DNA of 64,000 nucleotides from a virus (lineage: Duplodnaviria; Caudoviricetes). The notes under the pieces are model-generated. The model was not told the origin of the DNA. It did not search any database and saw only the letters and a program-made list of their open reading frames with translations. Where the stretch lies: IMG/VR virus record IMGVR_UViG_3300029305_003192; one strand, given 5' to 3'. Below, piece by piece: positions 14,575 through 61,288 of this stretch; position 1 is the stretch's first letter; each line of letters starts with the position of its first letter. A program made the position numbers and the translations under genes.

Positions 14575-14636
14575 AAGTAAAACCATCCTTTCTGTTAATA
14601 TTTTCGAAAATATTGATGGCGTCATCGTCATCTAAG

Positions 14637-14656
14637 CAATGATATATACTTTAAAA
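14637..14656 (-). promoter_or_regulatory. Putative early phage promoter
   Basis: TTTTAAAGTATATATCATTG; TATATATCAT core also at 23733 and 25969. Confidence 0.5.
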
Positions 14657-14688
14657 CCCCATAGCCACTGTAGGGCTATGGGGTTTTA
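14652..14688. terminator. Intergenic hairpin, 15-bp stem
   Basis: TAAAACCCCATAGCC...GGCTATGGGGTTTTA. Confidence 0.75.
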
Positions 14689-14694
14689 TATTAG

Positions 14695-20635: not shown

Positions 20636-23032
20636 TTAGTTATCAAGGTCGTCGATAGTGATTTCAGCATTAGCAATCAGGTCTCTTCTTGCCTGTCTTG
20701 GTTTATTACCCTTACCATGCAAGATGAATACTGTATCAATCGCCTTCTGTCTGTCATCCATTGTAAGACGTGTAAGCTTACGTGTCTTTGGATTGAGAGA
20801 TGTTGCGAACATCAGCATTGCTTCTGCTTCACCAAGTCCCTTGAATCTCTGCTCGGCTGTAATATTATATATACTGCCAATCTGATTAAAGAACTGACCA
20901 ATCGTAATCTTTTCGGGGATATCCTTCTCGTCTTTATTCTTATTACAGAATGCGACGTAAAGGCTTTCGTTCTGATTGAGAATATCGATGAAATGCTCTG
21001 CCATAGTCATAAAGCCTTCGTCGATGATAAGTCCATACTGTTCGGACTCGTAAGCACCTACGAGTGAACGAGACTCTGCATCATAAACCATTTCTGGAAG
21101 ACGCTTCTTAAGGTCCTTAACCATTGCCGCTGTGCCGAGACCATGCTCAACTACCGCATCACAAACATATTCAATGAGTGTTGGGTCACACGCTTCTCTT
21201 GTTTCAGCAAGCTTAAGCAGACGTTCGTAGTATCTCTTATTGAGCTCGAGGAAATTGATAATTTCTCTCTTATTCTGCTCAACTGGAGTACCGTCTGTAT
21301 CGAATACCCAGAGGCGGATATTCTTGGAAATAATGTCATTATATTCCCTCTGGAATTCCTTCTTGTCATAGTAGAAGTTCTTCTTCATACCGTACTTCTT
21401 AACGGTACTATCAGGGAATACGTAAAGTGGTGGCATACCTGCAAAGAGTCTGCCTTCCTCAATAAGCTGTGGATACCACGTTACAAGGTCCGTAGATACA
21501 AGTGAACGAATGTTCTTACCATCGGCATCGGCGTCTTGTAAGAATATAATCTTATTCCACTTGAAGTTATTGATGTCAAATGGCTTACCAGGTTCAATAC
21601 CGAGAATCTGTGAAAGCTCTCTTGGAATTGCAGACTTGTTTCTCTGAGCGATATTGAGCTCTGCAGTATTCTTAAGCACACCCTGGGTATGGTAGATTGC
21701 CTGGAAGTCGTGGTTTACCGTCTTATTAATAGCTCCGGCTGCGGATTTACCCTCAGTGATAATGAGCTCACGATAACCCTTCTTATTGCTATCAGAAAGC
21801 GGGATATATCTATCGATAGCGCTTTCGTCAAATACAGACATTGGCTTTGGAGGCTTGATGCCTTTCATTTGAATTGCAGCAAGTCTAATCTTTGACATCT
21901 GTCTGTAGTAACTGATGAGTTTATTAAGGAGTGCATTATTGGAGGAGAAGAATTCTGCAATAGCATTATGAATTCCCTTACGACCAATCTCGTCAATCTC
22001 CTTAGATGTTACAGATGACTTATGCTGACCTGCAAGTACTACTGAACCCCACTTACATCCAACTACCATTACGAGTCCCTTACGAACATCGGCAGCAGTT
22101 ACCGGATACTTAGAATCTGGGTCAGCTACTCTTGCAGCTTTGACCATAAAGTCACAAAGTGCACTACGACATGTATTGAGGTGATAACCGCCTTCAAATG
22201 TCCATACGTAGTTACAGTAAGAGTCATTAACTTCCTCTTCAATTGCCTTGTCGTATGAGAATGACATCTTGAGGAGAAGTGCGCCTGGTTCATTAGATTC
22301 TTCCCAGTCAATGTTGATTGGGTCAAATTCGAGTTTGGAAGCAGCAAGGAACTTAACGTTTGAGTCAAGTCCTGCGTACTTGAATACTCTGTCATAAGCT
22401 ATCTCAGTACAGTCACCCTTCATAGAGTAGAAGTGAATTGTGAGATGCTTAGGCATATCATATGACATGTGTCTTAACCACTCGAGACACATGTCTGTAG
22501 TAACATGTACTGGACCAAGCATGGTATCACTTGGTATAAAGTTAATCGTGAGACCGTGCTCATCCTTCTTAGCTGGTGTTGGGTCAAACTCCTGAAGTTC
22601 ACAATCGATAAACTTGATAAGTTTACTCTTACCTTCACGAATTGACTCCATGCTAAATACATGAGAATATGCATTAGTTACTTTCATACCAACACCAAAG
22701 CATCCTGCTGAGTAATAGTTGTTGGTACGGTCATATTTGGTAGATGTATGCTTATTGGTACAGAACTCGACCATCTTATCATGCTTGATACCTCTACCAT
22801 TATCAGATACAATGAAGTGCTGATATTCTTCATCGAAGTAAATCTCAATCTTATCACATGGCGACATCACGTTTGTCGCTTCGTCGATTGAGTTATTAAC
22901 GATTTCTTTGAAGAGATGTAATGCACCTTCAGTTCCCAATGTACTGATGTACATACCGGCACACTTCTGTATCTGCTCAAGCTCATTTTCTATGTGCTCG
23001 TAGTTATCATCTACGAACTGAGTCTTTGCCAT
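20636..23032 (-). CDS. gyrB: Type IIA topoisomerase subunit B (GyrB/ParE-like)
   Basis: GMYIS, EIVNNSIDEA, DNGRGI, TOPRIM TEGKSAA and DADADG, PPLY, RFKGLGE. Confidence 0.93.
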   Translation of the reverse strand: MAKTQFVDDNYEHIENELEQIQKCAGMYISTLGTEGALHLFKEIVNNSIDEATNVMSPCDKIEIYFDEEYQHFIVSDNGRGIKHDKMVEFCTNKHTSTKYDRTNNYYSAGCFGVGMKVTNAYSHVFSMESIREGKSKLIKFIDCELQEFDPTPAKKDEHGLTINFIPSDTMLGPVHVTTDMCLEWLRHMSYDMPKHLTIHFYSMKGDCTEIAYDRVFKYAGLDSNVKFLAASKLEFDPINIDWEESNEPGALLLKMSFSYDKAIEEEVNDSYCNYVWTFEGGYHLNTCRSALCDFMVKAARVADPDSKYPVTAADVRKGLVMVVGCKWGSVVLAGQHKSSVTSKEIDEIGRKGIHNAIAEFFSSNNALLNKLISYYRQMSKIRLAAIQMKGIKPPKPMSVFDESAIDRYIPLSDSNKKGYRELIITEGKSAAGAINKTVNHDFQAIYHTQGVLKNTAELNIAQRNKSAIPRELSQILGIEPGKPFDINNFKWNKIIFLQDADADGKNIRSLVSTDLVTWYPQLIEEGRLFAGMPPLYVFPDSTVKKYGMKKNFYYDKKEFQREYNDIISKNIRLWVFDTDGTPVEQNKREIINFLELNKRYYERLLKLAETREACDPTLIEYVCDAVVEHGLGTAAMVKDLKKRLPEMVYDAESRSLVGAYESEQYGLIIDEGFMTMAEHFIDILNQNESLYVAFCNKNKDEKDIPEKITIGQFFNQIGSIYNITAEQRFKGLGEAEAMLMFATSLNPKTRKLTRLTMDDRQKAIDTVFILHGKGNKPRQARRDLIANAEITIDDLDN

Positions 23033-25968: not shown

Positions 25969-25986
25969 GAAAAGTATATATCATAG
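25969..25986 (+). promoter_or_regulatory. Putative early promoter, divergent from the endolysin promoter
   Basis: GAAAAGTATATATCATAG upstream of the plus-strand gene at 26019. Confidence 0.5.
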
Positions 25987-33416: not shown

Positions 33417-35498
33417 ATGATTACTAAAGATTTAGTCAATATTGGTAATGCCAGAATTACTGGTAAAGTGTTTGCCTCTAAATTTATTGGTACCTTCAAC
33501 GGTACAGCGGATTCCGCTGCTGCACTTACTACGAATGCGGGTACGGCAACGAAACCAGTCTATTTTTCTAATGGTAAACCAGTTGCGACAACTTATGCTT
33601 TACAGCTCATGACAGCAGCCTCAGCAAGTGCTGCCGGTGCGGCTGGTCTTGTACCTTCAGCTGGAGCAGGAGCTAATAAAAAGTTTCTCAGGGGTGATGC
33701 TACATGGGCATCTATCGCAGGTAATGCTTATGCTACATGCACTACAGCGGCAGCTACTGCTGCTAAAGTAGCGACGATTTCTGGTAGTGTAAATTGGGAA
33801 CTTGTTACAGGCGCACAGGTAACTGTATTCTTCAGTTATACTAACAGTGCACAGAACCCGACCCTTAACGTCAATGGCACCGGTGCAAAACCCATCAAAT
33901 TAGGTTCAACCACCATTGCCACAACCCATCTGTCATATGCTGCGTATGCTAACCGTGCTATCAACTTTATCTACGATGGTAGCGCATATCAGTTTATTGG
34001 TTGGTCTACGGATACTAACACAACATATTCAGCAGCTACGTCTACAGCGGCTGGTCTTATGAGTGCCGCAGATAAAAGTAAGCTTGATGGTATTCAGGCA
34101 TCTGCAGATGCTGTATCATTCACACAATCACTTACCAGTGGTACTAAAATAGGTTCAATCAGTATTAATGGTGGCCCTACTGACATTTTTGCACCGACTA
34201 CAAAGCTTATTGCAGGTGCATCTGCTACTGCTACTGCAAATGCGGCGGCTTCTAACGGAAGTGCTTTTCTCAACGTTATTGAGAATGGTACTGTTAGGAG
34301 TAGTCATAAGATTGTAGGTAGTGGTGGTACGACCGTAACTACAGATGCTAATGGCGTAATCACTATTAAGTCAACCGATAATAATACCACATACACTCTC
34401 AGCAGTTTTGGTATTACTGCCACTGCGGCTGAGCTTAACATTCTTGATGGTGTTACTGTAACTGCAGCAAAGATTAACTACCTGACAGATGTTACATCCA
34501 ATATCCAGGCACAGCTTAATGGCAAGGCTGCATCATCACATGGCACTCATGTAACATATGCGACAGCAGTTCCATTGGTTGCTGGTACAGCAGCAGTCGG
34601 TACAGCAGCGAATGTTGCAAGAGGTGACCACGTTCATCCGGCACAGACTACTATTAGTGGTAATGCTGGCAGTGCAACTAAACTTGCTACCGCAAGAACT
34701 ATTGATGGTGTAAGCTTTAACGGTTCCGCAGCGATTACGCACTTCGGTACATGTGATACAGCGGCCGGAACTGCCGCAAAGACTGTAGCACTGACGGGAT
34801 TCTCATTAGTAACCGGTGCTAGGGTATTTGTAAAGTTCACATATGCTAATACGGCAGCTAATCCAACGCTGAATGTTAATTCTACCGGAGCCAAGGCTAT
34901 TATATATAGAGGCTCAGCTATCAGTGCGGCATATCTTAGAGCAAACGGTACTTATGAATTCCTGTATGATGGTACTAACTGGAATTTTGTTGGTGATTTA
35001 AACGTGGATACTAACACCACGTATACAAATGCATCTCTCGGCCAGGGATTCGGTACATGTGATACAGCGGCCGGAACTGCCGCAAAGACTGTAGCACTGA
35101 CAAACTATGCACTTACTACTGGTGGTATAGTTTCCGTAAAATTCACATATGCTGTACCCGCAAATGCCACGATGAATATTAACAGTAAGGGTGCGAAGTC
35201 GATTTTTTATAAGGGTGTGTCAATAACCGCAGGAGTCATTAATGCGGGGGACATCGCAACCTTCATATATGATGGTACTCAATATCATCTGATTTCGCTC
35301 GACAGTGGGGGCAGTGGTTCATCTTCCGGTGATTATATACCAACTACTGGTGGTACTGTAACCGGCAATGTTCAACAGTCAGGTGCTACTACTGACTACA
35401 CGACTTATAAATTCAGAAATATTGCCGTAGGTACATCTGCTACACCAACTTCAAATGCTACTTATGGTGTATCTGGATCTATCTATATTTATATCTAA
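33417..35498 (+). CDS. Ala/Thr-rich tail fibre protein with three internal repeats
   Basis: Three TC.TAA.TAAK...TG..V.V.F.Y.N...PTLNVN.TGAK.I...F.YDG units; ATKLATARTI motif. Confidence 0.8.
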   Translation: MITKDLVNIGNARITGKVFASKFIGTFNGTADSAAALTTNAGTATKPVYFSNGKPVATTYALQLMTAASASAAGAAGLVPSAGAGANKKFLRGDATWASIAGNAYATCTTAAATAAKVATISGSVNWELVTGAQVTVFFSYTNSAQNPTLNVNGTGAKPIKLGSTTIATTHLSYAAYANRAINFIYDGSAYQFIGWSTDTNTTYSAATSTAAGLMSAADKSKLDGIQASADAVSFTQSLTSGTKIGSISINGGPTDIFAPTTKLIAGASATATANAAASNGSAFLNVIENGTVRSSHKIVGSGGTTVTTDANGVITIKSTDNNTTYTLSSFGITATAAELNILDGVTVTAAKINYLTDVTSNIQAQLNGKAASSHGTHVTYATAVPLVAGTAAVGTAANVARGDHVHPAQTTISGNAGSATKLATARTIDGVSFNGSAAITHFGTCDTAAGTAAKTVALTGFSLVTGARVFVKFTYANTAANPTLNVNSTGAKAIIYRGSAISAAYLRANGTYEFLYDGTNWNFVGDLNVDTNTTYTNASLGQGFGTCDTAAGTAAKTVALTNYALTTGGIVSVKFTYAVPANATMNINSKGAKSIFYKGVSITAGVINAGDIATFIYDGTQYHLISLDSGGSGSSSGDYIPTTGGTVTGNVQQSGATTDYTTYKFRNIAVGTSATPTSNATYGVSGSIYIYI
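34743..35101 (+). repeat. Perfect 53-nt direct repeat (34743-34795 and 35049-35101)
   Basis: TTCGGTACATGTGATACAGCGGCCGGAACTGCCGCAAAGACTGTAGCACTGAC occurs twice. Confidence 0.9.
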
Positions 35499-37312: not shown

Positions 37313-38590
37313 ATGACAAGAAAAGAATTCGCAGAGTCCATCATGATTGGACATAATATCGGCAACGCTCTTGAGTGTATCGAGCCATACCGATATAATA
37401 ACACTGTTAAATCATTCAACGTTGAGCGAGAGGTTAATGATATCAATGGATATCATGACTTCAGAATATCAGTGCAGCTGGATGATGATAAGTATGAACT
37501 TCATTATTCATATGAAGAAATATGGTCAAATACGCCCATTACAACTGAATATTTGGCAAAGCTTAAAAGTTTTGGAATACAGGCGGTACGTCTCCCGTTT
37601 AATCTGATAGGCCATATTATAGATCCTACTAATCATACGGTTGATCCTCTTTGGCTTAAGAGAATTCGTGAGGTTGTCGAAATGTGTATTGATAATGGTC
37701 TTAAGTGTATACTGAATATGCACACTGACTATGCAGCAGCATGTAAGACACCTTCACTTTTATCAATTATTGATACTACCAGGGACCCATATACTGATAC
37801 AATGGGACGGTTAATGTCCGTTTGGGCACAATTGACAGAGTATCTCAATGATATATCGGTAGAAGATTTAGCATTTGAACTCACTAACGAGTTTCAGCTG
37901 ACCGATATCGAAAATAGGACGGATGCTGATACTCTGGCATCATATGCTTCAAATCTTTATAGATATCTTTTCACATCTATTCGTAATGTAGGTGGTAATG
38001 CTGCTGAAAGATTTCTACTTATTGGCGGTTATCGTAATGATATATGGTATTCGATATCTACATTCATAGATTTAATTAATACTGAGCTGGACGATAAGTG
38101 CTTGCTCACAACCTGTTATTATACTCCATGGCAATTTACCGTCGGCGACAGAGTGGAATGGGAGTACTCTGGTGACACTAAGGTCGAAATGGATAAACAC
38201 TATCAGTACATTCTCGATACCATCAACTCTACCGAAATACCATTCGTTATTACTGAATATGGTGCGGGATTACCATCCAAGAACCATTTCGATTCGGTGA
38301 ATTACACATATCATAACATGAAATGGGCATATGATAATAGTATACCAGCGTTCGTATGGGACCCTGGTTATATTCTACATCGCAACACTCTCGAATACGG
38401 TATCCCGTTCTGGGAAGATATGGTACGTTCGGTTATTAACGGTACTGATTATGATATTACATCGGCATATGATACGTATAAAGATAGTATCACATTCGAC
38501 AGATGTACTGAACAGACGCTTTTGACATATATGGATATATCACAGCTTGATAATCCTGCAAATATTAAGAAATATGCATCACAGTTCTAA
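37313..38590 (+). CDS. Glycoside hydrolase family 5 (cellulase-like), paralog 1
   Basis: GHNIGNALE, AVRLP, NMHTD, FELTNE (acid/base), YYTPW, ITEYG (nucleophile), WD. Confidence 0.85.
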   Translation: MTRKEFAESIMIGHNIGNALECIEPYRYNNTVKSFNVEREVNDINGYHDFRISVQLDDDKYELHYSYEEIWSNTPITTEYLAKLKSFGIQAVRLPFNLIGHIIDPTNHTVDPLWLKRIREVVEMCIDNGLKCILNMHTDYAAACKTPSLLSIIDTTRDPYTDTMGRLMSVWAQLTEYLNDISVEDLAFELTNEFQLTDIENRTDADTLASYASNLYRYLFTSIRNVGGNAAERFLLIGGYRNDIWYSISTFIDLINTELDDKCLLTTCYYTPWQFTVGDRVEWEYSGDTKVEMDKHYQYILDTINSTEIPFVITEYGAGLPSKNHFDSVNYTYHNMKWAYDNSIPAFVWDPGYILHRNTLEYGIPFWEDMVRSVINGTDYDITSAYDTYKDSITFDRCTEQTLLTYMDISQLDNPANIKKYASQF

Positions 38591-38607
38591 TAGGAGGCAT
38601 GATACTA

Positions 38608-39909
38608 ATGACTAGACGAGAATTTGCAGAAAGTATTCGTATTGGCCACAATCTTGGCAATGCACTTGAATGCATTGAGCCTGTGTGTAATAACGGGCTT
38701 GCCGTTACTGTTGATAGAGAAGTGACCGATATTAACGGATACCATGACCACAGAATCATCATTAAATATCCTGATGGCTCATATAGCTATTACTACAGCT
38801 TCGAAGAAATTTGGTCGAATGTACCAATTACTCAGGAATGGTTTAATATCTTAAAATCTATCGGCGTGCAGGCTATTCGTGTTCCTATGAATCTTTCGGG
38901 GCATCTTATAGATGGCATTAATCATACTATTGACCCCCTCTGGCTTAAAAGAATCCGTGAAGTAATCAACATGTGTATCTCTGCAGGATTAAAATGCGTC
39001 CTGACACTTCATACTGATTTCGTCATTATGTACAGAGTGGGAAGTTATCGTTCACTCATTGATACTACAAGAGACCCGTCCACGGATGGTGTTGGTAGAC
39101 TGATGAGTGCATGGAAGCAGATGGCTGAATATGTCAATGATATATCAGTAGAGGACCTGGCATTTGAACTTACTAACGAATTCAGATTATATGATATCGA
39201 TGGAAATGAACTTGCCACATATAACGAGGATGCTACTGATGAAGAAAAGGCAACGTATGCTGCCAGACTGAATAAGCATTTATTCGATGCTATCCGTAGC
39301 GTCGGTGGTAATGCTGCTGAAAGATTCTTACTTATTGGCGGATATGGTAATAACCCGGATACATGCCCCGATATTCTCATCAACTCAATCAAAAATGATA
39401 TGGATGATAAGTGTATCATAACAGCGTGTTATTATACACCGTGGGAGTTTACCGTATCAAGCATTAATACTACCTGGGAATATTGTAAGCGTATGAGGGA
39501 TATTATGGATAATCATTTCAATCGTCTGCTTGCAGTAAGTAATGATAACGACATCCCATTGGTAATTACCGAGTTCGGTATTGGTTGTGATGAGGGTGCT
39601 ATGGCTAAGAAGGAGAAGTTCTCGTTCTGCAGTTATATCTTCACAGTAATGAATATGATGAAGGAGCACAATGTTCCTGCATTTATTTGGGATCCTGGAT
39701 ATATTCTCAGAAGGGATAGTATGACCTTCGGATTACCATTCTACCCATCATTGGTTGAGAGTGTTGCTAATGGTACACCTTTCGATCCATACAATGCATA
39801 TCTGGAGACAATTGACAATTATAATATCGAAAGATTAACATATCGTGACGAATTAACCCTCGAGGACATTCAGGCTCTCGATAATCTCCAAAACTCCGAG
39901 GAGGTGTAA
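38608..39909 (+). CDS. Glycoside hydrolase family 5, paralog 2
   Basis: GHNLGNALE, AIRVP, FELTNE, ITEFG, WD; start aligned to the paralogs. Confidence 0.85.
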   Translation: MTRREFAESIRIGHNLGNALECIEPVCNNGLAVTVDREVTDINGYHDHRIIIKYPDGSYSYYYSFEEIWSNVPITQEWFNILKSIGVQAIRVPMNLSGHLIDGINHTIDPLWLKRIREVINMCISAGLKCVLTLHTDFVIMYRVGSYRSLIDTTRDPSTDGVGRLMSAWKQMAEYVNDISVEDLAFELTNEFRLYDIDGNELATYNEDATDEEKATYAARLNKHLFDAIRSVGGNAAERFLLIGGYGNNPDTCPDILINSIKNDMDDKCIITACYYTPWEFTVSSINTTWEYCKRMRDIMDNHFNRLLAVSNDNDIPLVITEFGIGCDEGAMAKKEKFSFCSYIFTVMNMMKEHNVPAFIWDPGYILRRDSMTFGLPFYPSLVESVANGTPFDPYNAYLETIDNYNIERLTYRDELTLEDIQALDNLQNSEEV

Positions 39910-39912
39910 TGT

Positions 39913-41193
39913 ATGACCAGGGAACAATTCGCAGAGAGAATCCGCATAGGGCATAACCTTGGTAATGCCCTTGAATGCATCGAACCTGTATATGATTCGG
40001 CCGCTACTATAAAGATCGACAGAGCAGTTACCGACAAGAATGGCTATCATGACCACCGTATAATCATTCAGTATCCGGATGGTACATATAGCTATTTCTA
40101 CAATTTTGACGAGATATGGTCAAATGCACCAGTAACCGAGGATTTCTTTAAAATCCTGGCAGACATCGGGGTTCAGTTAGTGAGAATTCCAATGAATCTA
40201 TCTGGTCACATAATCGATGATAATAACACCGTGGATCCTTTATGGCTTAAGAAGATACGGTCCGTCGTCGAGATGTGTATTAATAACGATATGGTAGCTA
40301 ATCTTTGTCTGCATACAGACTTCGTAAAATATTACAGAGAAACTCAGTTCGAATCGCTATTTGATCTTCAAAATGATCCAAATGATGATGCTGTCGGAGT
40401 TCTTATGTCAGTATGGAAGCAGATGGCTGAATATGTCAATGATATCCCAGTAGACGTATTGTGCTTCGAGCTGACCAATGAATTCCGAATTCATGATATG
40501 GATGATGATTTAAGCCATCCAAATGGTAGAGTATTAACTTTCCAGGAGAAGGCTATGTATGCTGCACGTTTAAATAAGTACCTGTTTGATGCAGTACGCA
40601 GCGTCGGTGGAAATGCGGCTAAAAGATTCTTATTAATTGAAAACTATGCTAACTGTGCTGATATGGATAAGCAGACATATATAGAGAGTTTCAAGAACGA
40701 TTTTGATTCCAGATGTCTTATGACAGCATGTTATTATTGCCCGTGGGAATTCACGGTGTGCGATAGGCACAACACGTGGGAGTTAAATTCTGCAATAAAA
40801 CCTATCATGGAACGAGAAATGAATAGACTCAAATATATCCGTGAGGAATCAGGAGTCCCACTCGTCATTACAGAATATGGCGTCGGTTGCGATAACTCTG
40901 GTATGGAGCATAAAGACAAATTCTCAATATGCAGGTACTTGTATACCGTAATGAAGATGATGAAAAATGAAGGATTTCCTGCATTTATTTGGGATCCTGG
41001 ATATATCATCAAGCGTATCGATTATCATTACGGTATCCCGTTCTGGAGAGAAATGCTGAGGGGTATATACTTCGGAGAACCTTTCGATCTCTACGAATCG
41101 TTTACAGAACACTCCGAGCATTTACTCTTTACACGACATTATTATGGCGTCTCCAGAACTGCTGAAGATATCCGAGCACTCGACGATATATAA
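39913..41193 (+). CDS. Glycoside hydrolase family 5, paralog 3
   Basis: GHNLGNALE, VRIP, FELTNE, ITEYG, WD. Confidence 0.85.
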   Translation: MTREQFAERIRIGHNLGNALECIEPVYDSAATIKIDRAVTDKNGYHDHRIIIQYPDGTYSYFYNFDEIWSNAPVTEDFFKILADIGVQLVRIPMNLSGHIIDDNNTVDPLWLKKIRSVVEMCINNDMVANLCLHTDFVKYYRETQFESLFDLQNDPNDDAVGVLMSVWKQMAEYVNDIPVDVLCFELTNEFRIHDMDDDLSHPNGRVLTFQEKAMYAARLNKYLFDAVRSVGGNAAKRFLLIENYANCADMDKQTYIESFKNDFDSRCLMTACYYCPWEFTVCDRHNTWELNSAIKPIMEREMNRLKYIREESGVPLVITEYGVGCDNSGMEHKDKFSICRYLYTVMKMMKNEGFPAFIWDPGYIIKRIDYHYGIPFWREMLRGIYFGEPFDLYESFTEHSEHLLFTRHYYGVSRTAEDIRALDDI

Positions 41194-45572: not shown

Positions 45573-46280
45573 ATGTATCTTATCTACGATATCGTATGTG
45601 GTGATTGTTTGAATATCTACGATGGCGATATTCGAACGTTCGATAAGTCGTTTAAAACGGGTACTGCTTACTATAATTCGGAATCGTTCGGATATATCGA
45701 GGTTCCAGAAGACTGTGTTGAGAATATAAATACAAACGGACTCGATAATTACAAGGTTATCGATGGTGAAGTAGTATATGAAAAGCCCGCGGCAGAAATT
45801 ATTCCCGATCCAGAGGAACCACCTACTGAGGAGGATAATGTAGTAGTTGGTGAATCTGCTCTCGAATATATGATTACTATGAAATGTGAAGAGATTAATA
45901 ATACATGCCATGCTGCCATCATTGCAGGTATAGACGTGGAAACATCTTATGGTCTCGAGCATTTCAGCCTCACTAAAGATGATCAGTCTAATATTCAGCA
46001 GTGGTATGCAATTGCTAAGACAACTGATGTCAATCTTCCATATCATGCAGATGATGGTGATTGTAAGCCCTATACAAATACCGACATCATTAAGATTGGT
46101 AGTATGGCCACAGCTCATATTACACATCATACAACTTACTGTAACCAGTTAAAGAAGTATGTAAAGTCACTTACATCTGTAAAGGATGTATTCGATGTCG
46201 AATACGGAGTTACTCAGTTAACGGGCGAGTTCCTCGAGAAGTACGAAACTTGTATGGGACTCCTTGCGGTGCTTAATTAA
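45573..46280 (+). CDS. Tail-associated protein, DUF4376-like
   Basis: HFSLTKDDQSNI...YHADDGDCKPY...HTTYCNQLK. Confidence 0.7.
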   Translation: MYLIYDIVCGDCLNIYDGDIRTFDKSFKTGTAYYNSESFGYIEVPEDCVENINTNGLDNYKVIDGEVVYEKPAAEIIPDPEEPPTEEDNVVVGESALEYMITMKCEEINNTCHAAIIAGIDVETSYGLEHFSLTKDDQSNIQQWYAIAKTTDVNLPYHADDGDCKPYTNTDIIKIGSMATAHITHHTTYCNQLKKYVKSLTSVKDVFDVEYGVTQLTGEFLEKYETCMGLLAVLN

Positions 46281-46281
46281 C

Positions 46282-46324
46282 AAAAAAAAATGAATCGAGT
46301 AGGCTAATGAAACCTACTCGATTC
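46282..46324 (-). terminator. Intrinsic terminator oriented for a minus-strand transcript
   Basis: 12-bp stem GAATCGAGTAGG/CCTACTCGATTC with A9 on the plus strand (U9 after the hairpin on minus). Confidence 0.8.
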
Positions 46325-46745
46325 TTACCCTATATTCCACTCAAAGTGTGCTGGGTTAATAGCCACCAGTGACGAGTATCGGATAGTCCCATAGTCTTTA
46401 TCACTATGGGAGTCCGTACCATTTGTCACCGGCGTTTGACGCTTTGAGCTTCCTACCGGGTGTGATGAATAACAACCTAATGTGTGGTACGTACCACCCT
46501 TTCGGCCAGGTCGTACCAATCAGAGGTAAGTGCCTTCATTGCTGAAGGTTGAACCCTCTGATATGAGGTAGGTTGTTTTCAAGACCGTACCAGTATCTCA
46601 CGACACAAATACGGTCAAGCAAGCATATCCTATTACTGAGATATACTTTGCGTTCACCCTAGTAGGCGTAGCTTTATATATAAACAGTGCAATTCAATGC
46701 ACAGGTATTATAGTAGTTTCATCACGATACTATCTATAACGCACT
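46325..46745 (-). ncRNA. Putative large structured non-coding RNA (~420 nt), family unknown
   Basis: No credible ORF; nested helices, several GNRA-capped hairpins and G-U pairs on the minus strand; promoter-like motif upstream, terminator downstream. Confidence 0.7.
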
Positions 46746-46747
46746 AA

Positions 46748-46764
46748 TATCATATATATTTGAA
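46748..46764 (-). promoter_or_regulatory. Putative promoter of the ncRNA
   Basis: TTCAAATATATATGATA, matches 11669-11686. Confidence 0.45.
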
Positions 46765-46808
46765 CCCTCTGACAATTTTAATAATTATTAAAAAGGAGGA
46801 ATCTTATT

Positions 46809-47183
46809 ATGACACCAGCTCAGAAAATCGCCGCAAATTATAAGGCAAAAAATATGCAGGAACCTGACCCTAACGCGGTTCCAGAGAACAAAACTACATT
46901 ACCGGTTGAGGAGGAAACACCAATGGCAGAAGTAAATACAGCCCCAGTACAGGAAACTGCTCCAGGATCTGCTCAGGAACAGGTAGTGGTGATTCCAGTA
47001 ACAGGAATCTCCGCACTTATCAACGCACTCAATGACACTCAGAAGAACCTTATGGAATTTAAGTTCCATGATGTAACTGCAGGAGAGCTTACCGATTATC
47101 TTGCAAATATTACAAATATTCAGCAGTGCGTACAGTATCTCGGTGAAGTTGTTAAGGCAAACTACGAGAATCTTCATAAGTAA
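46809..47183 (+). CDS. Hypothetical protein
   Basis: 124 aa, AAGGAGG RBS, disordered N-half. Confidence 0.75.
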   Translation: MTPAQKIAANYKAKNMQEPDPNAVPENKTTLPVEEETPMAEVNTAPVQETAPGSAQEQVVVIPVTGISALINALNDTQKNLMEFKFHDVTAGELTDYLANITNIQQCVQYLGEVVKANYENLHK

Positions 47184-47196
47184 TCGGTGATATAAT

Positions 47197-47361
47197 ATGG
47201 CAAGAAAATCATCAGGGAATTTCTTTACCGTTAAAGAAGCTGCAGAATTTCTCGGAGTGTCAACTGTTACAATGTACCGTTATATAAAAGACGGTGGAGT
47301 AGAGGCGGTAAAGCCATTAATGAAACTGACTGGTCTCGATAACGACAATGCTGAGAAATAA
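47197..47361 (+). CDS. Small excisionase/MerR-like helix-turn-helix protein (54 aa)
   Basis: Own translation MARKSSGNFFTVKEAAEFLGVSTVTMYRYIKDG...; HTH_17-type pattern. Confidence 0.75.
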   Translation: MARKSSGNFFTVKEAAEFLGVSTVTMYRYIKDGGVEAVKPLMKLTGLDNDNAEK

Positions 47362-50651: not shown

Positions 50652-50674
50652 ATAAATTCCTCCTTTCGATTGAT

Positions 50675-50686
50675 TATATAGCTGTT
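50675..50686 (-). promoter_or_regulatory. Putative late promoter AACA-N6-TA
   Basis: AACAGCTATATA between a hairpin and a tail gene. Confidence 0.55.
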
Positions 50687-50697
50687 GAAAGGCGGTA

Positions 50698-50731
50698 GTT
50701 ACCCCGTTACCTTTAAAGGTAACGGGGTAAC
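50698..50731. terminator. Perfect 34-nt palindrome/hairpin
   Basis: GTTACCCCGTTACCTTTAAAGGTAACGGGGTAAC. Confidence 0.7.
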
Positions 50732-50986
50732 ATGCTAATGACGTTTGAACACAATATGGTTGTGCTTATCTTAAGATACTGTAGTTAAATCGCATAGGAT
50801 TATGGGGTTAGATTGTAATATCATATACAAGTTAAGCAATGTTAACGTAGAGACATAATAGTTATAGTGTAAGTACACTTGCTCTTTTCGTTGGGGAATT
50901 TCGCACTATTACGTCTGGTAGAAAGAAAGTGTCTACTGGCACAAGTTGAGAAATGCACAGTATAATACCAGACATGTGTTTATTTA

Positions 50987-54855: not shown

Positions 54856-55671
54856 TTAAGCATCAAAGCTTTGACTTGTGGCTACCGCCGAGCACGATGT
54901 AGTGCATACAATTGCACATGTACTGTTACATGAGGATGTGCATCCGAAACACTGTAATTTACAGCTTTCTTTACACGTCTGTGTACATTCTTCCATACAT
55001 GTATATCCGCATGATTCTCTACAATCATTATCGCATGTAGTTGCACATGAATTGGTACATGTTGTCGAGCATGTTCCCGCACACGAGCCGCACAAATGAA
55101 TACATCCTGCACCGCACGTAGAACATTGACCCATACAATTATCACCACATGAGTTTTGACAAAATCCAAAGCACGCATTCGAGCATCCCTCACAACCGTC
55201 AGTGCACGCATCACTACATGTCGACGTACAACCTAGACATACGCCGGTGCAGCTATGGAGACACTCGGCACCGCATGCTGATGAACACACGTCTCCACAT
55301 GCACCACTACACTTTCCACGACATGTACTGCCACAGCCGGAACAGCCGGAGCATCCCTGGCATAGATTTTTGCAGGAATCACTACAACCACCAGAGCATC
55401 CTCCGCATCCATCAGTACAGTCACCTCTACATCCTCCAGAACACGAATTGACGCATCCTGTTCCGCATCCGTACTGACAATCTGCAGTACACCCATTACA
55501 GCCACCTTGACATGTTGCTTGGCATCCATAATGACACCCATGACCGCATCCTTCAGTACACAGCGCACTACATACTACCAAACATGAGTTACCACATCCG
55601 CCTGAACATTCGCCAAAATAATCACCATCGGGCTGACCACCTACGATATTACTAGTATTCGGATCTGACAT
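54856..55671 (-). CDS. Cys-x-x-x repeat protein (271 aa)
   Basis: Near-continuous Cxxx/Cxx periodicity; GAGGTGA RBS. Confidence 0.85.
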   Translation of the reverse strand: MSDPNTSNIVGGQPDGDYFGECSGGCGNSCLVVCSALCTEGCGHGCHYGCQATCQGGCNGCTADCQYGCGTGCVNSCSGGCRGDCTDGCGGCSGGCSDSCKNLCQGCSGCSGCGSTCRGKCSGACGDVCSSACGAECLHSCTGVCLGCTSTCSDACTDGCEGCSNACFGFCQNSCGDNCMGQCSTCGAGCIHLCGSCAGTCSTTCTNSCATTCDNDCRESCGYTCMEECTQTCKESCKLQCFGCTSSCNSTCAIVCTTSCSAVATSQSFDA

Positions 55672-55678
55672 ATACTAA

Positions 55679-55981
55679 TCACCTCGTCCCATATGTTTTT
55701 ATAATAATTGCATTCTCACTACCAAAGCACGAGAATGCACAACCACTAGAGCATGAACGACTGCAATCATTTCCGCAAGAAGTTGCACAACTTCCTTCAC
55801 ATTTATTAGCACAGCTAATACATGAGTTCTTACATCCCTGACATGAACCTTTACAGTCTCCAGAGCACTGTGATTCACACGTTCCATAACAACTGCCCAG
55901 ACACGTATTAAAACACGTGTCTGTACAGGTCGTTTCGCATGATGATGCACAGTCAATACACTCGATAGTCAATGGTATCAT
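55679..55981 (-). CDS. Cys-x-x-x repeat protein (100 aa)
   Basis: Continuous Cxxx periodicity; AGGTGA RBS. Confidence 0.8.
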   Translation of the reverse strand: MIPLTIECIDCASSCETTCTDTCFNTCLGSCYGTCESQCSGDCKGSCQGCKNSCISCANKCEGSCATSCGNDCSRSCSSGCAFSCFGSENAIIIKTYGTR

Positions 55982-55989
55982 ATCATCAC

Positions 55990-58896
55990 CTACTCTTTAA
56001 CTAGAAGTAATATTATACTAGCACGTCCATATATGGAGTATGTAGTATCAAAATTAAATGTCATAGTTCTGGATTCGAATTCTGCGACCGATGGAGCGTT
56101 GGTGGCATGGGAATAACCGTCAATTTTAGGAATCATAAACTCATATTCCTCGAATGACGTATCCTTTCTATTCAACGGTACTATCTTAACTATCGATTTT
56201 GAATCCTGGTCATATAATACGACGTTGAAATCTGAATCAGTACGACCATCTGTAGAGTATGAATATGGAATATCTATACCATAATCGTATGATTCGTATA
56301 ACTCAAATCCAGCATTATATACGATACCCGAATAGCTACCATCCGCAAGAATTTCTTTATACTCATTAGCCTCGACGGTAACAGTTACCGTGTCAGTGAG
56401 TCTTGAAGGATAATTCGTAACTCCAGTGATTGCCTCTGGAGCACTCAAAGGTATTGAGCCCGATACATCGGTGATTTGTCCACCATCACGGATTATCAGA
56501 TCACTGGTGACTTTGGCATGTGGATTATTTGCTAGATTACATACGTCGGCTACACCGGGAACTATACTCACATTACCTGATGAATCAAACGAAATATCAA
56601 TTTCGCTACACTCACAGAACGGTACGATTCCAATACCACGTTTTATCATACTTCCTTCATATATAAGTGGTACTGATATAGCTTTCTTTGCCACGTTATC
56701 TATGTGACGCAGTATATTAAATGTTACATTATCACCGTACACTGAAATGATATCACCACTATGTAGAATAGCACTATATGGCAATGCTTCATATGTGTTA
56801 TTAATCTTAAGATTCCAGCTAGAATCATGAGCTCCGCTAATTAGACTACCGCTGGAATTTGTAGCGGTAATAAAGACGATAGTATCGGTGGCTATAGAAA
56901 TATTTTTAGTCTGATTAACCAGGGTCATTGTCTCTTCATCAGCCTCGAAAGATAAACCAACCTCAACCTTGGAGTATAAATACATTTCTCGTATAGTCGA
57001 TGAATACATCTTGGTTACAGAGGGATCCGAATTTGTCATGATGGCAGTAGGTAACGATGAATCGATTGGATAAACCGTACCATCCGTACTGTCGACCCAT
57101 TTTCTTTGGGACGGAATGCCACCATCATATAATGGGAATATATCATCAATGATATCAAATGTAGGGAGCTTAATATCTCCAACCGAAAGGGGTTCCGAAA
57201 CCGCACTATTGTCATGATAAATCGTTGATAGTGTACCATATAAATATCCGTTGTGGTATAATTCAACGGATCTATATTTCGGTGAAGATGCTATGGAACG
57301 TGTAACACCACCACAACCTGTAGTACACCTAGCACCGCATCCACCACATGTATCCTGCAATCCTGTATTACCATAGCAACCTGCAGTACATCCATGGCAT
57401 GTAGTTTTACAGGTTGTGGCACATGAACCATCGCAAGTATTAGTACATCCTGTACATCCCGAGCAACCCGAGGAACATCCACTACATCCAGATGCCTTTC
57501 CGCTACAATCACTTCCGCAATTCATACCGCATGACGTTCCACATGACTCGGAGCAACCCGTACACTGTCCAGAACACTTACCGGAACATACCTCACTACA
57601 CGATGCACACTCATTGATACATCCACCACTGCATGCAGTGGTGCAGTTGTTTTGACATAAACCAGTACATGCCCCACGACAATGTGACACTGGTGCATCA
57701 AATGGTGTATCCCTCAGGAACTTTACGAACTTTAATAGTTTCTCTTTATGATAGATTCCTGGGAGAAGATCCAGCTCTCTAACATGACGTGCATCTGCAA
57801 AATCGCATATATTAAGAAGCATATCTATGACTGGAATACCATGTCCAACGCGAATTATATCGGTACTACTATCTATTATAAACAGCGTATCATCCGGTTC
57901 AGATAAGATAGGACCACAATAATGACGAAATTCTGGTTGATGGAGGTAATCTCCATCTTCATTAAATCCAGATCGTCTATATATTTCATTACGAACTTGA
58001 ACGATAATCTGCTCGAGTTCGCTCGTATTTGTAATTAATGAATTAGAACCTGTACATGTTTCCCAACATGTACCAGTACACGATGTACATTCATCGGTAC
58101 ATCTACCGGCACAATCTTCTTCACATGTACCTGTGCATACAGCGGCGCATGTCATAGCACATTCTTTCGAACATGTACCAGAGCATCCTCCGGTACAACC
58201 GGTACATATGTCCGTGCATGCGCTCATGCACGCACCAGTACATCCACCGGCACAATCATCTGCACACGTTTTTGAGCACGTACTCGTGCACGTTTCATTG
58301 CATGTGTTTTTACAGCTATTATCACATCCGCCAGTACATGTTGTATTACATCCAGTGGAGCAGCCACCAGTACATGCATTTCCACATTTACCAGTGCAGT
58401 TAGTACCACATCCAGTATCACATGTTGATGTACATGTCTCCGAGCATCCTCCGGAACAGCCGGAACACGATGATGTACAGCCGGAACCACATCCCTCACA
58501 ATAACCTGCACAAGCAGTCGAGCAGTTGGATGCACATGACGAACATGACTGTTTACAACTACCATAACATCCAGTACTGCATCCTCCGGAACAGCCGGAA
58601 CAGCCGGAACATGATGATGCACAGCCGGAACCACATCCTGCACATGCAGCTGCCGTATTTGTACAACCATAACATCCATCGCAAGCATTAGTACATGTAC
58701 TATCACATGAACCCGAGCAAGATGTACTACACGTGCCGGTACAAGACATACATCCAGTGGAACATGAACCGCACGTACTTGCACATGTACCATTACAACC
58801 ATATGATGGAGTCTGATGGTTACCAGTACTCGCCATGCTGGTGCAGTCACCACAACCACCGCTGCCAGATCCACTATTGCTTCCTCCACACGACAT
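55990..58896 (-). CDS. Large Cys-repeat protein (968 aa): Cxxx tract, globular insert, Cxxx tract, Cys-poor C-terminal domain
   Basis: Two Cxxx tracts separated by an E..RR...CRGACTGLC domain; ~430-aa beta-rich C-terminus. Confidence 0.85.
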   Translation of the reverse strand: MSCGGSNSGSGSGGCGDCTSMASTGNHQTPSYGCNGTCASTCGSCSTGCMSCTGTCSTSCSGSCDSTCTNACDGCYGCTNTAAACAGCGSGCASSCSGCSGCSGGCSTGCYGSCKQSCSSCASNCSTACAGYCEGCGSGCTSSCSGCSGGCSETCTSTCDTGCGTNCTGKCGNACTGGCSTGCNTTCTGGCDNSCKNTCNETCTSTCSKTCADDCAGGCTGACMSACTDICTGCTGGCSGTCSKECAMTCAAVCTGTCEEDCAGRCTDECTSCTGTCWETCTGSNSLITNTSELEQIIVQVRNEIYRRSGFNEDGDYLHQPEFRHYCGPILSEPDDTLFIIDSSTDIIRVGHGIPVIDMLLNICDFADARHVRELDLLPGIYHKEKLLKFVKFLRDTPFDAPVSHCRGACTGLCQNNCTTACSGGCINECASCSEVCSGKCSGQCTGCSESCGTSCGMNCGSDCSGKASGCSGCSSGCSGCTGCTNTCDGSCATTCKTTCHGCTAGCYGNTGLQDTCGGCGARCTTGCGGVTRSIASSPKYRSVELYHNGYLYGTLSTIYHDNSAVSEPLSVGDIKLPTFDIIDDIFPLYDGGIPSQRKWVDSTDGTVYPIDSSLPTAIMTNSDPSVTKMYSSTIREMYLYSKVEVGLSFEADEETMTLVNQTKNISIATDTIVFITATNSSGSLISGAHDSSWNLKINNTYEALPYSAILHSGDIISVYGDNVTFNILRHIDNVAKKAISVPLIYEGSMIKRGIGIVPFCECSEIDISFDSSGNVSIVPGVADVCNLANNPHAKVTSDLIIRDGGQITDVSGSIPLSAPEAITGVTNYPSRLTDTVTVTVEANEYKEILADGSYSGIVYNAGFELYESYDYGIDIPYSYSTDGRTDSDFNVVLYDQDSKSIVKIVPLNRKDTSFEEYEFMIPKIDGYSHATNAPSVAEFESRTMTFNFDTTYSIYGRASIILLLVKE

Positions 58897-58897
58897 A

Positions 58898-59890
58898 TTA
58901 TGTCACCTCCTCAGAATTCGTTTCGCTTGAAGTGCCTGTAGTGTCAGATGATGCCATTGCTAAACACGAACCAGTACAACCAAGACAACCCGTATTGACG
59001 GTTCTTCCCTCTGCCGTACCGAAGCATTCATCTTTACATCCACCAAAACACGTATTATCGCAGATATCACTACATGAATTCATACATCCCATATGACATC
59101 CATTCATACAGTGGTCACCACATTCATGAACACATTCACCACCGCATGTGGTTACACACATACCGGCACATAACTCACTACATCCGGTACAACCTTTACA
59201 TTTATCGTCGCACCCTGTACATCCGCCGCCACAACCGGAGCATCCGTGACATCCATCACATTCTCCACGACAGCACTCTTTACAGGTGCCACCACATCCG
59301 CCTTTACATTCATCGTGACATCCTTCGTCACATGAATCAGAGCATCCGCCGGTACATCCTGTACATCCTGCACAAGATGTACACATTCCAGTACATACCG
59401 TACCACAGTTTTTCTTACAAGCATCAGTACATGCAGTAGTACATTCACCACCACATTTCTTTATACATCCATTAGTACACGAGTCTCCGCATCCGGCACA
59501 TCCGGAACCACATCCGGAGAAACATTTCGATTTACATGTATTATTACACGTGGTTCCACATCCTGTTTTACATCCACCGGTACATGTTGTTGAGCATGAT
59601 TTAGCAGCAGCTGCAGAAGACTGACAGCTGCTATGACACTCACCGCCACAACCACTACCACACTGTCTGCTACACGAGCCACTACAATCGCTACCGCATG
59701 AGCCACCACATCCAGAACCACATGATCCACCACATGCTCCCTTACCACAGGATCCACAGCCCTGACATCCAGATGAGCATATACTATTACACGATGACTT
59801 ACACTGGCTCGTACATGACTGATTGCACGAACCCGATGTTCTACCGGAACATGATGCCATGCATCCGTTTCCGGAACAATCAACTGCCAT
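58898..59890 (-). CDS. Cys-x-x-x repeat protein (~330 aa)
   Basis: Continuous Cxxx periodicity; ATG 59890 after GAGGTG. Confidence 0.85.
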   Translation of the reverse strand: MAVDCSGNGCMASCSGRTSGSCNQSCTSQCKSSCNSICSSGCQGCGSCGKGACGGSCGSGCGGSCGSDCSGSCSRQCGSGCGGECHSSCQSSAAAAKSCSTTCTGGCKTGCGTTCNNTCKSKCFSGCGSGCAGCGDSCTNGCIKKCGGECTTACTDACKKNCGTVCTGMCTSCAGCTGCTGGCSDSCDEGCHDECKGGCGGTCKECCRGECDGCHGCSGCGGGCTGCDDKCKGCTGCSELCAGMCVTTCGGECVHECGDHCMNGCHMGCMNSCSDICDNTCFGGCKDECFGTAEGRTVNTGCLGCTGSCLAMASSDTTGTSSETNSEEVT

Positions 59891-60089
59891 TTGTTCCACC
59901 TCGCTTTATAGTCGAAGATATTGATTCGTTATTAATGGTCTTTTTTACAATCGTCGGTATCATTACCTTATTATATCTGATTATACCTCTACTGGATGAC
60001 GTAGCGTCGCATGACGCGCCGCAATTATTTTTACATCCGCTTACACATGCGGTACTACATGTAGTACCGCATCCACATTCAATAGCCAT
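59880..60089 (-). CDS. Short Cys-x-x-x repeat protein (69 aa)
   Basis: CGCGTTCSTACVSGCKNNCGASC then a basic tail; fills the operon gap. Confidence 0.65.
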   Translation of the reverse strand: MAIECGCGTTCSTACVSGCKNNCGASCDATSSSRGIIRYNKVMIPTIVKKTINNESISSTIKRGGTNGS

Positions 60090-60099
60090 TTATTCAGCC

Positions 60100-61233
60100 T
60101 CAATTCTTTTTATTACCTTTATCTCCGTTAGTATTTGCGGTATTATGATTATTTCCATTAGGCGAGTATGAATTATTAGCACATGCTGCCGAACAGGTTT
60201 TATTACAACCTCCAGCACATCCTCCCTTACAGGAACCAGTACAACCTGATCCACAACTTGTACTACATCCACTACACTGTCCAGTACATGCAGATCCACA
60301 AGCACGTGTGCATATAGAGGAGCATCCATCACTACACCCAGTAGGGGTTGATGGGCCGCCAGGATTATTTGATGATGATCTACATGTTGATGAGCACGAT
60401 GTCGTACAATTACCGTTACATGATGGAGCCTGGTTAACTGTTGAACTCGTAGCAGTATCTTTACAGCCACCAGTACATGTATCTGTGCATCCTGTACTAG
60501 CACCGCCTGTAGCACTACCAGTACATCCAGCGCATGTACTCGTACACGATTCTTCGCACGAATCATGTTTCTTGGTAGCGAATCCCGTACACGATTTCCA
60601 ACAACCGCCATCACATTTACCGTTACATCCGCCAGTACAACCTGTACCACATCCATTGGTACATTTATTTTCACACTTACCCGTGCACGTGCCACTACAT
60701 CCTTCACACGTACCACCACATCCATTACATGTTGTAGTACAAGCTCCACATGAAGTACATGCTACATTACAGGCAGTTGTACAAGCACCACAACCAGTAC
60801 AACCATTGGTACATTCCTCACTGCAACCGTTACAGGTATTGATACATGTCATCATACATAGACCGGAACATGCAGATCTACATGAGATGGCACCGTTTCT
60901 GTCAGTATTAAGTGGGTTAGAAGTTGCAAGCATATCCTCGCTCTGAAGAAGCTTTATAAATGCGAGAAGTTCATTATATTCGAATGAATCAGGGATAGGG
61001 TCGGCCACTTCAACGAGGATAAGGTCTCCCTTATCACAAATATGAAGTAATGGGTCAATCGTTTTAGCACCCTGCTCCTGCGTAATAACATCATGAGTTC
61101 TTGGCACTACACTGAAATCATAAGCATCTTTAGAGAATTCGGTCATACGGCCATATCCGCCGCGACGCATCATCTCTTGTTTAATTAACGCTTTAAGTTC
61201 TTTCGCCTGGTCAGGCGTTACATGAAGAATCAT
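60100..61233 (-). CDS. Cys-repeat protein with ~105-aa N-terminal leader-like domain
   Basis: ATG 61233 after AAGGAGG; EMMRR...CRSACSGLC then Cxxx tract. Confidence 0.85.
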   Translation of the reverse strand: MILHVTPDQAKELKALIKQEMMRRGGYGRMTEFSKDAYDFSVVPRTHDVITQEQGAKTIDPLLHICDKGDLILVEVADPIPDSFEYNELLAFIKLLQSEDMLATSNPLNTDRNGAISCRSACSGLCMMTCINTCNGCSEECTNGCTGCGACTTACNVACTSCGACTTTCNGCGGTCEGCSGTCTGKCENKCTNGCGTGCTGGCNGKCDGGCWKSCTGFATKKHDSCEESCTSTCAGCTGSATGGASTGCTDTCTGGCKDTATSSTVNQAPSCNGNCTTSCSSTCRSSSNNPGGPSTPTGCSDGCSSICTRACGSACTGQCSGCSTSCGSGCTGSCKGGCAGGCNKTCSAACANNSYSPNGNNHNTANTNGDKGNKKN

Positions 61234-61260
61234 TATAATCCTCCTTCTTATAAAATTAGA

Positions 61261-61288
61261 ACCCAATGCAATTATAATTGCATTGGGT
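61261..61288. terminator. Perfect palindrome/hairpin upstream of the Cys-repeat operon
   Basis: ACCCAATGCAATTATAATTGCATTGGGT. Confidence 0.65.

Follow-up and report, generated by a model that had tools for sequence, protein, structure and literature searches.

Within the 64,000 nt of viral DNA that we analysed (the window, which is part of a 141-kb IMG/VR viral contig of an estimated 59% completeness), two plus-strand genes are separated by a gap of 528 nt, and the question raised by this locus is what such a gap encodes. An earlier note had proposed, from the letters alone, that its minus strand specifies a large and strongly structured RNA. Folding bears out the strength of the structure: the minus strand has a minimum free energy of -187.6 kcal/mol, with z = -12.7 against dinucleotide shuffles, while the plus strand of the same gap gives z = -7.8, and this is the most structured ORF-free gap of the contig, all others being no better than -7. 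Moderate values (z from -5 to -7) were obtained for other ORF-free gaps (21653-22078 of the contig, and 50652-50986 and 14095-14694 of the window), which may contain further small structured RNAs or leaders. The sole sizeable reading frame within the RNA locus, of 64 codons, is broken in five homologues and its variable sites are spread evenly over the codon positions (13/13/15), so that a coding reading was rejected and the region is taken to be non-coding.

The surroundings tell us what kind of genome carries the locus. The contig encodes a multisubunit RNAP beta subunit, a PhuZ-like tubulin, a topoisomerase II and a UvsX-like recombinase, and its RNAP beta has about 27-28% identity to those of the Bacillus phages AR9/PBS1 and of Staphylococcus jumbo phages. 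Judging by these genes and by the AR9/PBS1-type similarity of the polymerase, the carrier is a jumbo phage of the RNAP-encoding kind, whose bacterial host probably belongs to the Bacillota. The RNA gene sits within a tail-fibre/virion module, in which the tail-fibre-like gene next to the gap is preceded by three GH5 glycosidase genes and by further tail-fibre-like genes. These GH5 genes (37313-41193, plus strand) are tandem paralogues that are placed directly upstream of tail-fibre-like genes and share DNA blocks of 60-76% identity at a spacing of 1.3 kb; their products, all about 430 aa long and containing a GH5 "cellulase" domain, are probably virion-associated glycanases. On the other side of the gap, the gene for a 124-aa protein is followed by a small HTH/excisionase-like gene (47197-47361, plus strand) that only some of the relatives possess. 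Elsewhere in the window, large minus-strand ORFs (54856-61266) are packed with short degenerate repeats of 12-nt period (families D1, D2, D4 and D7-D11), whose richness in Cys codons on the coding strand suggests very Cys-rich repeat proteins, and a 693-aa ORF (33417-35498) contains an exact 53-nt direct repeat (34743-34795 and 35049-35101, plus strand, 306 nt apart; family D14).

Homologues of the RNA were sought by several routes. Phage GenBank records gave no RNA match to blastn in its distant mode, and the neighbouring proteins had no relatives in IMG/VR. The earlier note had looked to related jumbo phages as the source of homologues, but in five such records (found via RNAP beta, two of them complete) neither BLAST nor a covariance model found the RNA; a stretch of 15 nt matched by BLAST in L010 fell in a ribosome-binding-site/start-codon region and was dismissed as chance. 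It was synteny that supplied the collection. In a large protein collection the 124-aa protein has eight relatives (66-93% identity), and in every contig that bears such a relative and extends sufficiently upstream, the 124-aa-type gene is preceded by the same gap, about 525 nt long. The alignment built from these metagenome contigs holds 12 distinct RNA sequences of 61-95% identity. In most comparisons the DNA of the RNA exceeds both flanking genes in conservation; in L026 the values are 94.5% versus 76% and 75%.

The revised structure, counted on this alignment, has 139 pairs in 17 helices, and 97.2% of its pair cells are standard pairs on the minus strand. Changes on both sides of a pair, i.e. 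compensatory changes, occur in 32 of the 139 pairs, compared with 11.6 +/- 2.6 in shuffled alignments (none of 500 shuffles reached 32), and a control in which the partners were slid by one to three columns gave just three to seven such pairs; the covariation that the earlier note had expected among homologues is thus present. When the alignment is read as the plus strand the paired cells fall to 89.5%, and the minus strand has 138 G-U as against 13 A-C cells, from which it follows, as had been claimed from the window alone, that the RNA is the minus strand. A search for extra tertiary helices by covariation returned noise only, driven by L031.

Signals for transcription were also looked for at the two ends. 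The earlier note had spoken of a promoter-like motif, and upstream of the RNA there is a copy of a recurrent AT-rich motif of this phage: TATATATNAT occurs 24 times in the 141-kb contig where nine copies would be expected, and 19 of the 24 are intergenic (intergenic DNA being 9% of the genome), mostly 17-80 nt upstream of an ORF on the same strand. Several copies have in common a longer form, TATATAT[C/G]ATATTAGT; the motif often takes the form TATATATCATATTAGT, and further examples in the window lie near 25984 (plus strand) and 14650 (minus strand). Upstream of the RNA the AT-rich block is invariant across the 12 homologues and overlaps a sigma-70-like scan match (TTGTCA-18-GATATT, 46775-46746), and we infer a transcription start at about 46742 +/- 4. 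The motif may represent the promoter consensus of a phage polymerase. In RNAP-encoding jumbo phages the early promoters of the virion RNAP have AT-rich motifs about 10 nt long, with their centre near -10 (PMC7598289), and by analogy the RNA is probably made by a phage polymerase and perhaps expressed early.

The terminator has its U-tract on the minus strand, between two plus-strand neighbours, just as the earlier note described it; 12 of its stem pairs were counted across homologues and four are compensatory. In three homologues (L018, L025 and L031) it is replaced by a different hairpin and U-tract. In the same three the body of the RNA is conserved while the DUF4376 tail-fibre-like gene upstream has either been replaced or diverged strongly (DNA identity 49-55%), a pattern that suggests a recombination breakpoint at the 3' end of the RNA. 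These exchanges can also be taken as a sign that the locus works in cis, as an antisense element or insulator that would regulate how plus-strand transcription runs on from the tail-fibre gene to the 124-aa gene, be it via transcriptional interference, double-stranded RNA or a bidirectional terminator. One would then understand why the RNA lies antisense between plus-strand genes with its promoter against the start of the 124-aa gene, why A- and T-tracts occur on both sides of the terminator in L018, L025 and L031, and why the terminator is exchanged where the tail-fibre gene is. However, simple antisense control needs no elaborate fold, whereas the 32 compensatory pairs, a pseudoknot (see below) and the G-U asymmetry show selection on a folded minus-strand RNA; in addition, a relative of the RNA in another phage type (L037, see below) is on the same strand as its neighbours, and targets complementary to the conserved loops are not enriched elsewhere in the phage genome. 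We therefore consider control in cis to be distinctly improbable.

Could the gene belong to a described family? Rfam 15 contains no family that matches at gathering score anywhere in the window, or at E<=10 in 46150-46900 (the RNA body), beyond terminator-like chance matches, which are also all that it gives on the L032/L037 relatives; ARAGORN finds no tRNA or tmRNA in the window and no tRNA in the 141-kb contig. The earlier note had seen no tmRNA, RNase P or group I hallmarks and had named a match to a known Rfam family as the result that would remove novelty, and these searches side with it. We rejected tmRNA and RNase P RNA because neither ARAGORN nor Rfam matched, and a group I intron (RF00028) because there is no model match and both neighbours are complete genes of the opposite strand. 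A guide RNA of TnpB/IscB type (omega RNA, HEARO) was set aside as well, there being no same-strand neighbour, no TnpB-type domain in the contig and no HEARO match, and so was a retron or DGR template RNA, since the 141 kb (about 59% of the genome) hold no RVT_1 domain and no repeat involves the RNA region. As to a riboswitch or other cis-acting leader, no gene follows on the same strand: the terminator is succeeded by the 3' end of the convergent plus-strand gene, both in the window and in every homologue whose contig reaches that far. On the evidence of sequence, the minus strand is a stand-alone gene for a folded, conserved non-coding RNA with a promoter motif and a terminator at its ends. 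That this is a real functional RNA gene we regard as almost certain, and that it represents a new RNA family as highly probable; the earlier picture of a large, independently transcribed minus-strand phage ncRNA of no described family is supported.

The features of the locus are listed in the table below. The predicted overall fold opens with a 5' hairpin, and an 8-bp pseudoknot joins its loop to the strand just after the middle domain. The remainder consists of three more hairpins, the two-armed middle domain itself, and a 3' domain of stacked helices with an invariant hairpin at its tip.

Table. Predicted features of the RNA locus and its neighbouring genes, in window coordinates.
Feature	Position	Strand	Remarks
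DUF4376/tail-fibre-like protein gene	45573-46280	+	Converges on the 3' end of the RNA
Whole RNA	46283-46742	-	About 455 nt, from inferred start to end of U-tract; from fold, homologue alignment, covariation and strand
Intrinsic terminator	46283-46324	-	Hairpin 46324-46292, 14-bp stem and 9 U; top terminator call
3' domain	46327-46461	-	Closed by ACCC.GUA (46461-46454) with UAU.GGGU (46334-46327), then CUCAAAG/CUUUGAG, then CCGGUGAC/GUCACUGG
Invariant 40-nt block ACGGACUCCCAUAGUGAUAAAGACUAUGGGACUAUCCGAU, apical hairpin of 3' domain	46378-46417	-	Constant in all 12 homologues
Pseudoknot 3' strand UUCAUCAC	46462-46469	-	Pairs with 46725-46718
Middle domain, helix AACAACCUA/UAGGUUGUU around two arms	46471-46577	-	Helices 7-11 of covariation count
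Hairpin H5, GACCGUAUU.GUGUC / GAUAC.GGUACGGUC, GUGA/GUUA loop	46583-46616	-	4 compensatory pairs; 99.4% of cells paired
Hairpin H4, GCAAAGUAUAUCU/GGAUAUGCUUGC, 8-nt loop	46619-46651	-	2 compensatory pairs
Invariant block ACGCCUA..AGGGUGAA	46653-46670	-	15 of 17 positions invariant across 12 sequences
Hairpin H2, GUGCA/UGCAC	46687-46702	-	A-U to G-C in two sequences
Hairpin H1, UAUAGAUAGU/ACUACUAUA, 11-nt loop	46709-46738	-	L031 exchanges two stem pairs (A-U to G-C, U-A to A-U), read from alignment
Pseudoknot 5' strand GUGAUGAA, in H1 loop	46718-46725	-	Pairs with 46469-46462
Promoter region	46743-46775	-	-35-like TTGTCA 46775-46770; AT-rich phage motif TATATATGAT(ATTAGT) 46758-46743
124-aa protein gene, without family	46809-47183	+	RNA promoter abuts its start

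At the 5' end, H1 covaries in L031 (where its count is blurred by a 1-nt misalignment), and the transcript should therefore start upstream of 46738. The earlier note was right that the RNA is large; its length of about 420 nt has to be raised to nearer 455 nt because this covarying hairpin (46738-46709) belongs to the transcript. The loop of H1 provides one strand of the pseudoknot GUGAUGAA/UUCAUCAC, a pairing first proposed by RNAalifold. It comprises eight perfect pairs and is kept in 99% of cells; A-U is exchanged for U-A once, and five sequences show wobble changes. UCAUCAC is also found at the position of its 3' strand in L032. The invariant block ACGCCUA..AGGGUGAA may contain a weak local hairpin, CGCCU/GGGUG, on which covariation is uninformative since the block hardly varies. 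In the middle domain, one arm consists of AUCAGAGG/CCUCUGAU, a conserved 6x6 internal loop (GUUCAR / YACUUA) whose bases are invariant in the 12 homologues, and a GCAA-capped stem, and the other arm is UGGUACGACC.../...GGUACGUACCA. A T-loop reading of GGGUUCAR was considered but not adopted, since the base that it would require to be A throughout is G in some of the sequences.

Most of the helices that had been drawn from the window sequence alone survive comparison, and most of those confirmed carry compensatory changes. Kept across the 12 homologues are the long-range helices AACAACCUA/UAGGUUGUU and CUCAAAG/CUUUGAG as well as all the hairpins claimed, namely AUCAGAGG/CCUCUGAU (with CCUUCA-GCAA-UGAAGG), UGGUACG.../...CGUACCA (with its GAAA-capped tip), GACCGUA/UACGGUC (GUGA loop), GUAUAUC/GAUAUGC, CCGGUGAC/GUCACUGG and CCCAUAGU/ACUAUGGG. 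For GUAUAUC/GAUAUGC it is the stem that stands and not the "GUAA loop" as a tetraloop, GUAA lying inside a loop of 8 nt. The outermost helix, CCUAC-UA-GGGUG/CACCC-G-GUAGG, is complementary in the window and present in the single-sequence minimum-energy fold, but did not hold up in the alignment: it has no compensatory pairs, six of its 10 pairs vary by breaking only, and 88% of its cells are paired. Covariation favours in its place ACCC.GUA/UAY.GGGU together with the loop pseudoknot. That closing helix of the 3' domain has compensatory changes in four of seven pairs (in L031, for instance, ACCC becomes UUCC with GGGU becoming GGAA, and in L019 a U-A becomes C-G), and the helices stacked on it, CUCAAAG/CUUUGAG and CCGGUGAC/GUCACUGG, in five of seven and three of eight, respectively.

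The apical hairpin of the 3' domain is different. Its loop is GAUAAAG, closed by G-U/A-C, and the 40-nt block varies at a single place, where a C/U wobble turns G-C into G-U in three sequences; L031, whose RNA has just 62% identity overall, keeps the block although other stems covary freely. A search with a stem-variable pattern led to a JGI metagenome contig, L032, which ends within the RNA, and protein synteny to L032, rather than the motif, led to L037, where an RNA of about 390 nt (z = -5.9) has its own terminator. The apical element of L037 is GUGAUAAAGAC, flanked by CCC/GGG and GAC/CUAUC as in the window RNA, and L032 retains UCAUCAC, ACCC and GGGGUAAG in the same order. A covariance model of the 3' domain of the window RNA matches L032 with E 8.5e-5 and L037 with E 1.1e-3, the match spanning the hairpin only, so that homology between the window RNA and this second type is demonstrable over about 35-58 nt. 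Proteins flanking the L032/L037 RNAs are unrelated to those of the window, and the shared apical element in such company places the hairpin module, and probably the RNA as a whole, in unrelated phage backgrounds; in both cases the genomic setting is a virion-structural or lysis region. The second-type RNA is closely followed by one (L037, 3761-3901, plus strand) or two tandem (L032, 400-700, plus strand) small units of about 45 codons, each with an inverted repeat of 12-13 bp around a conserved CUCACCACAGCU, the arms of which differ between the contigs yet remain complementary. These units could be small proteins, RNA hairpins or both, and all contigs of the L032/L037 phage type break at them.

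An inverted repeat of 8 bp lies within the invariant block, and the two transcription directions converge near this region, as might be seen in an element acting at the level of DNA (an origin, a packaging site or an operator palindrome) and not as RNA. Yet an excess of G-U over A-C and GNRA loops specific to one strand would make no sense in duplex DNA, L032 and L037 interrupt the inverted repeat while keeping the apical loop, and a promoter and a terminator bracket the RNA. We find a DNA-level element scarcely credible, and continue with the locus as an RNA gene.

As far as our searches define it, the distribution of this RNA is narrow. Three patterns for the H13 module, run in IMG/VR, found nothing beyond the window's own record, two run in 185,579 GTDB species genomes found no match, and the one run in JGI metagenomes found L032 only; a fourth pattern, for the middle domain, was run in IMG/VR only and had no match. 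A literature search with the hairpin sequence retrieved just an unrelated CRISPR spacer and primers. Known copies amount to 14 sequences including L032 and L037, all from metagenomes, and the sample labels of the contigs suggest ruminant gut studies.

What might the RNA do? We propose that it would act in trans: the folded RNA would be a scaffold for one specific partner, be it a protein of the phage, a protein of the host or a second RNA. The putative docking site is the invariant apical hairpin with its GAUAAAG loop, because this is the only stem in which the sequence is frozen and not just the pairing, and because it is shared with the diverged second RNA. Partner binding as the mode of action is a tentative suggestion, which we hold with some doubt, and the whole statement of a structured ncRNA gene including the scaffold mechanism is in our judgement nearly, if not quite, balanced between right and wrong. 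The 124-aa neighbour was rejected as an RNA-binding partner: it has no Pfam, PHROG or Atlas match, its AlphaFold model is poor (pLDDT 57, a helical hairpin), and no relative of it adjoins the L032/L037 RNAs, all of which counts against the scaffold reading, as do the narrow distribution and the short span over which homology to L032/L037 is demonstrable. The invariant stem could alternatively be an RNA-RNA contact or a catalytic core. In the latter case we would be dealing with a ribozyme that cleaves either itself or acts on some other RNA and whose active site the invariant nucleotides would make up, and one can point to the compact multi-helix junction with its pseudoknot and to the invariant unpaired or weakly paired blocks (ACGCCUA..AGGGUGAA, the 6x6 internal loop and the apical hairpin). 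Against catalysis, however, no known ribozyme family matches, the position between opposite-strand genes does not fit an intron, and neither a processing site nor a substrate can be inferred, so that we consider a ribozyme very improbable.

Large, elaborately folded RNAs without a known function are, to our knowledge, rare, and the ncRNAs of jumbo phages with their own RNA polymerases are, as far as we know, almost unexplored. Each large RNA of this sort characterised so far (RNase P, group I/II introns, OLE, ROOL, GOLLD) revealed new RNA biochemistry. The present candidate offers a covariation-supported secondary structure, a promoter and a terminator, and its frozen hairpin gives pull-downs and mutagenesis a definite target. 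That it occurs in phages of unrelated background suggests that its function can be carried from one phage to another. Going further, a new class of large phage RNAs might begin with this one, its function unprecedented among phage ncRNAs, for example an early RNA that captures a host or phage macromolecule via the frozen GUGAUAAAGAC hairpin, the class having spread among unrelated rumen phages as a mobile module; we think this rather unlikely as it stands.

For the kind of mechanism proposed, the pRNA of phage phi29 may serve as an illustration, being a phage-encoded structured RNA of about 174 nt that has its own promoter and forms part of a protein machine; its fold is different, there is no Rfam match to it, and nothing here links our RNA to a packaging motor. 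The earlier note had instead compared the RNA with ROOL and GOLLD. ROOL RNAs, about 580 nt in length, are often located near tRNA islands. Like them, the RNA described here is a large, highly structured and pseudoknotted phage RNA, encoded by a stand-alone gene without a known protein partner; unlike them it is about 455 nt long and has no adjoining tRNA genes, and membership of ROOL (RF03087) was rejected since no covariance-model match was obtained at gathering score or at E<=10 and neither the window nor the contig contains a tRNA. ROOL, first found in rumen metagenomes, and GOLLD are RNAs of phages and prophages whose function is not established and which form nanocages, and GOLLD, usually longer than 800 nt, combines a conserved 3' region with a variable 5' region (PMC12286853). 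With GOLLD (RF01998) our RNA shares the placement of the conserved part, the element in common with the second RNA type lying in the 3' domain, but it is about half the size, has no tRNA adjacent or embedded and does not match the model, so that membership was again rejected.

These likenesses make it worth asking whether the RNA might assemble by itself into an RNA-only particle, a multimer held by loop-loop and A-minor contacts in which the invariant hairpin would be the intermolecular bridge. In favour of this, the RNA is large, ornate and pseudoknotted, it has several GNRA loops and no protein partner could be identified for it, nanocages are what ROOL and GOLLD form, and a conserved module in the 3' domain is reminiscent of the conserved 3' region of GOLLD (PMC12286853). 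On the other hand, the conserved loops show no self-complementarity, the whole contig, including the vicinity of the RNA, is free of tRNA genes, neither model matches even at E<=10, and the RNA is shorter than both. Self-assembly is thus improbable in our view, and the scaffold that binds a partner remains the reading we prefer. The comparison made in the earlier note holds as an analogy and fails as an assignment to a family: the RNA resembles ROOL and GOLLD in kind only, as a further large and ornate phage RNA.
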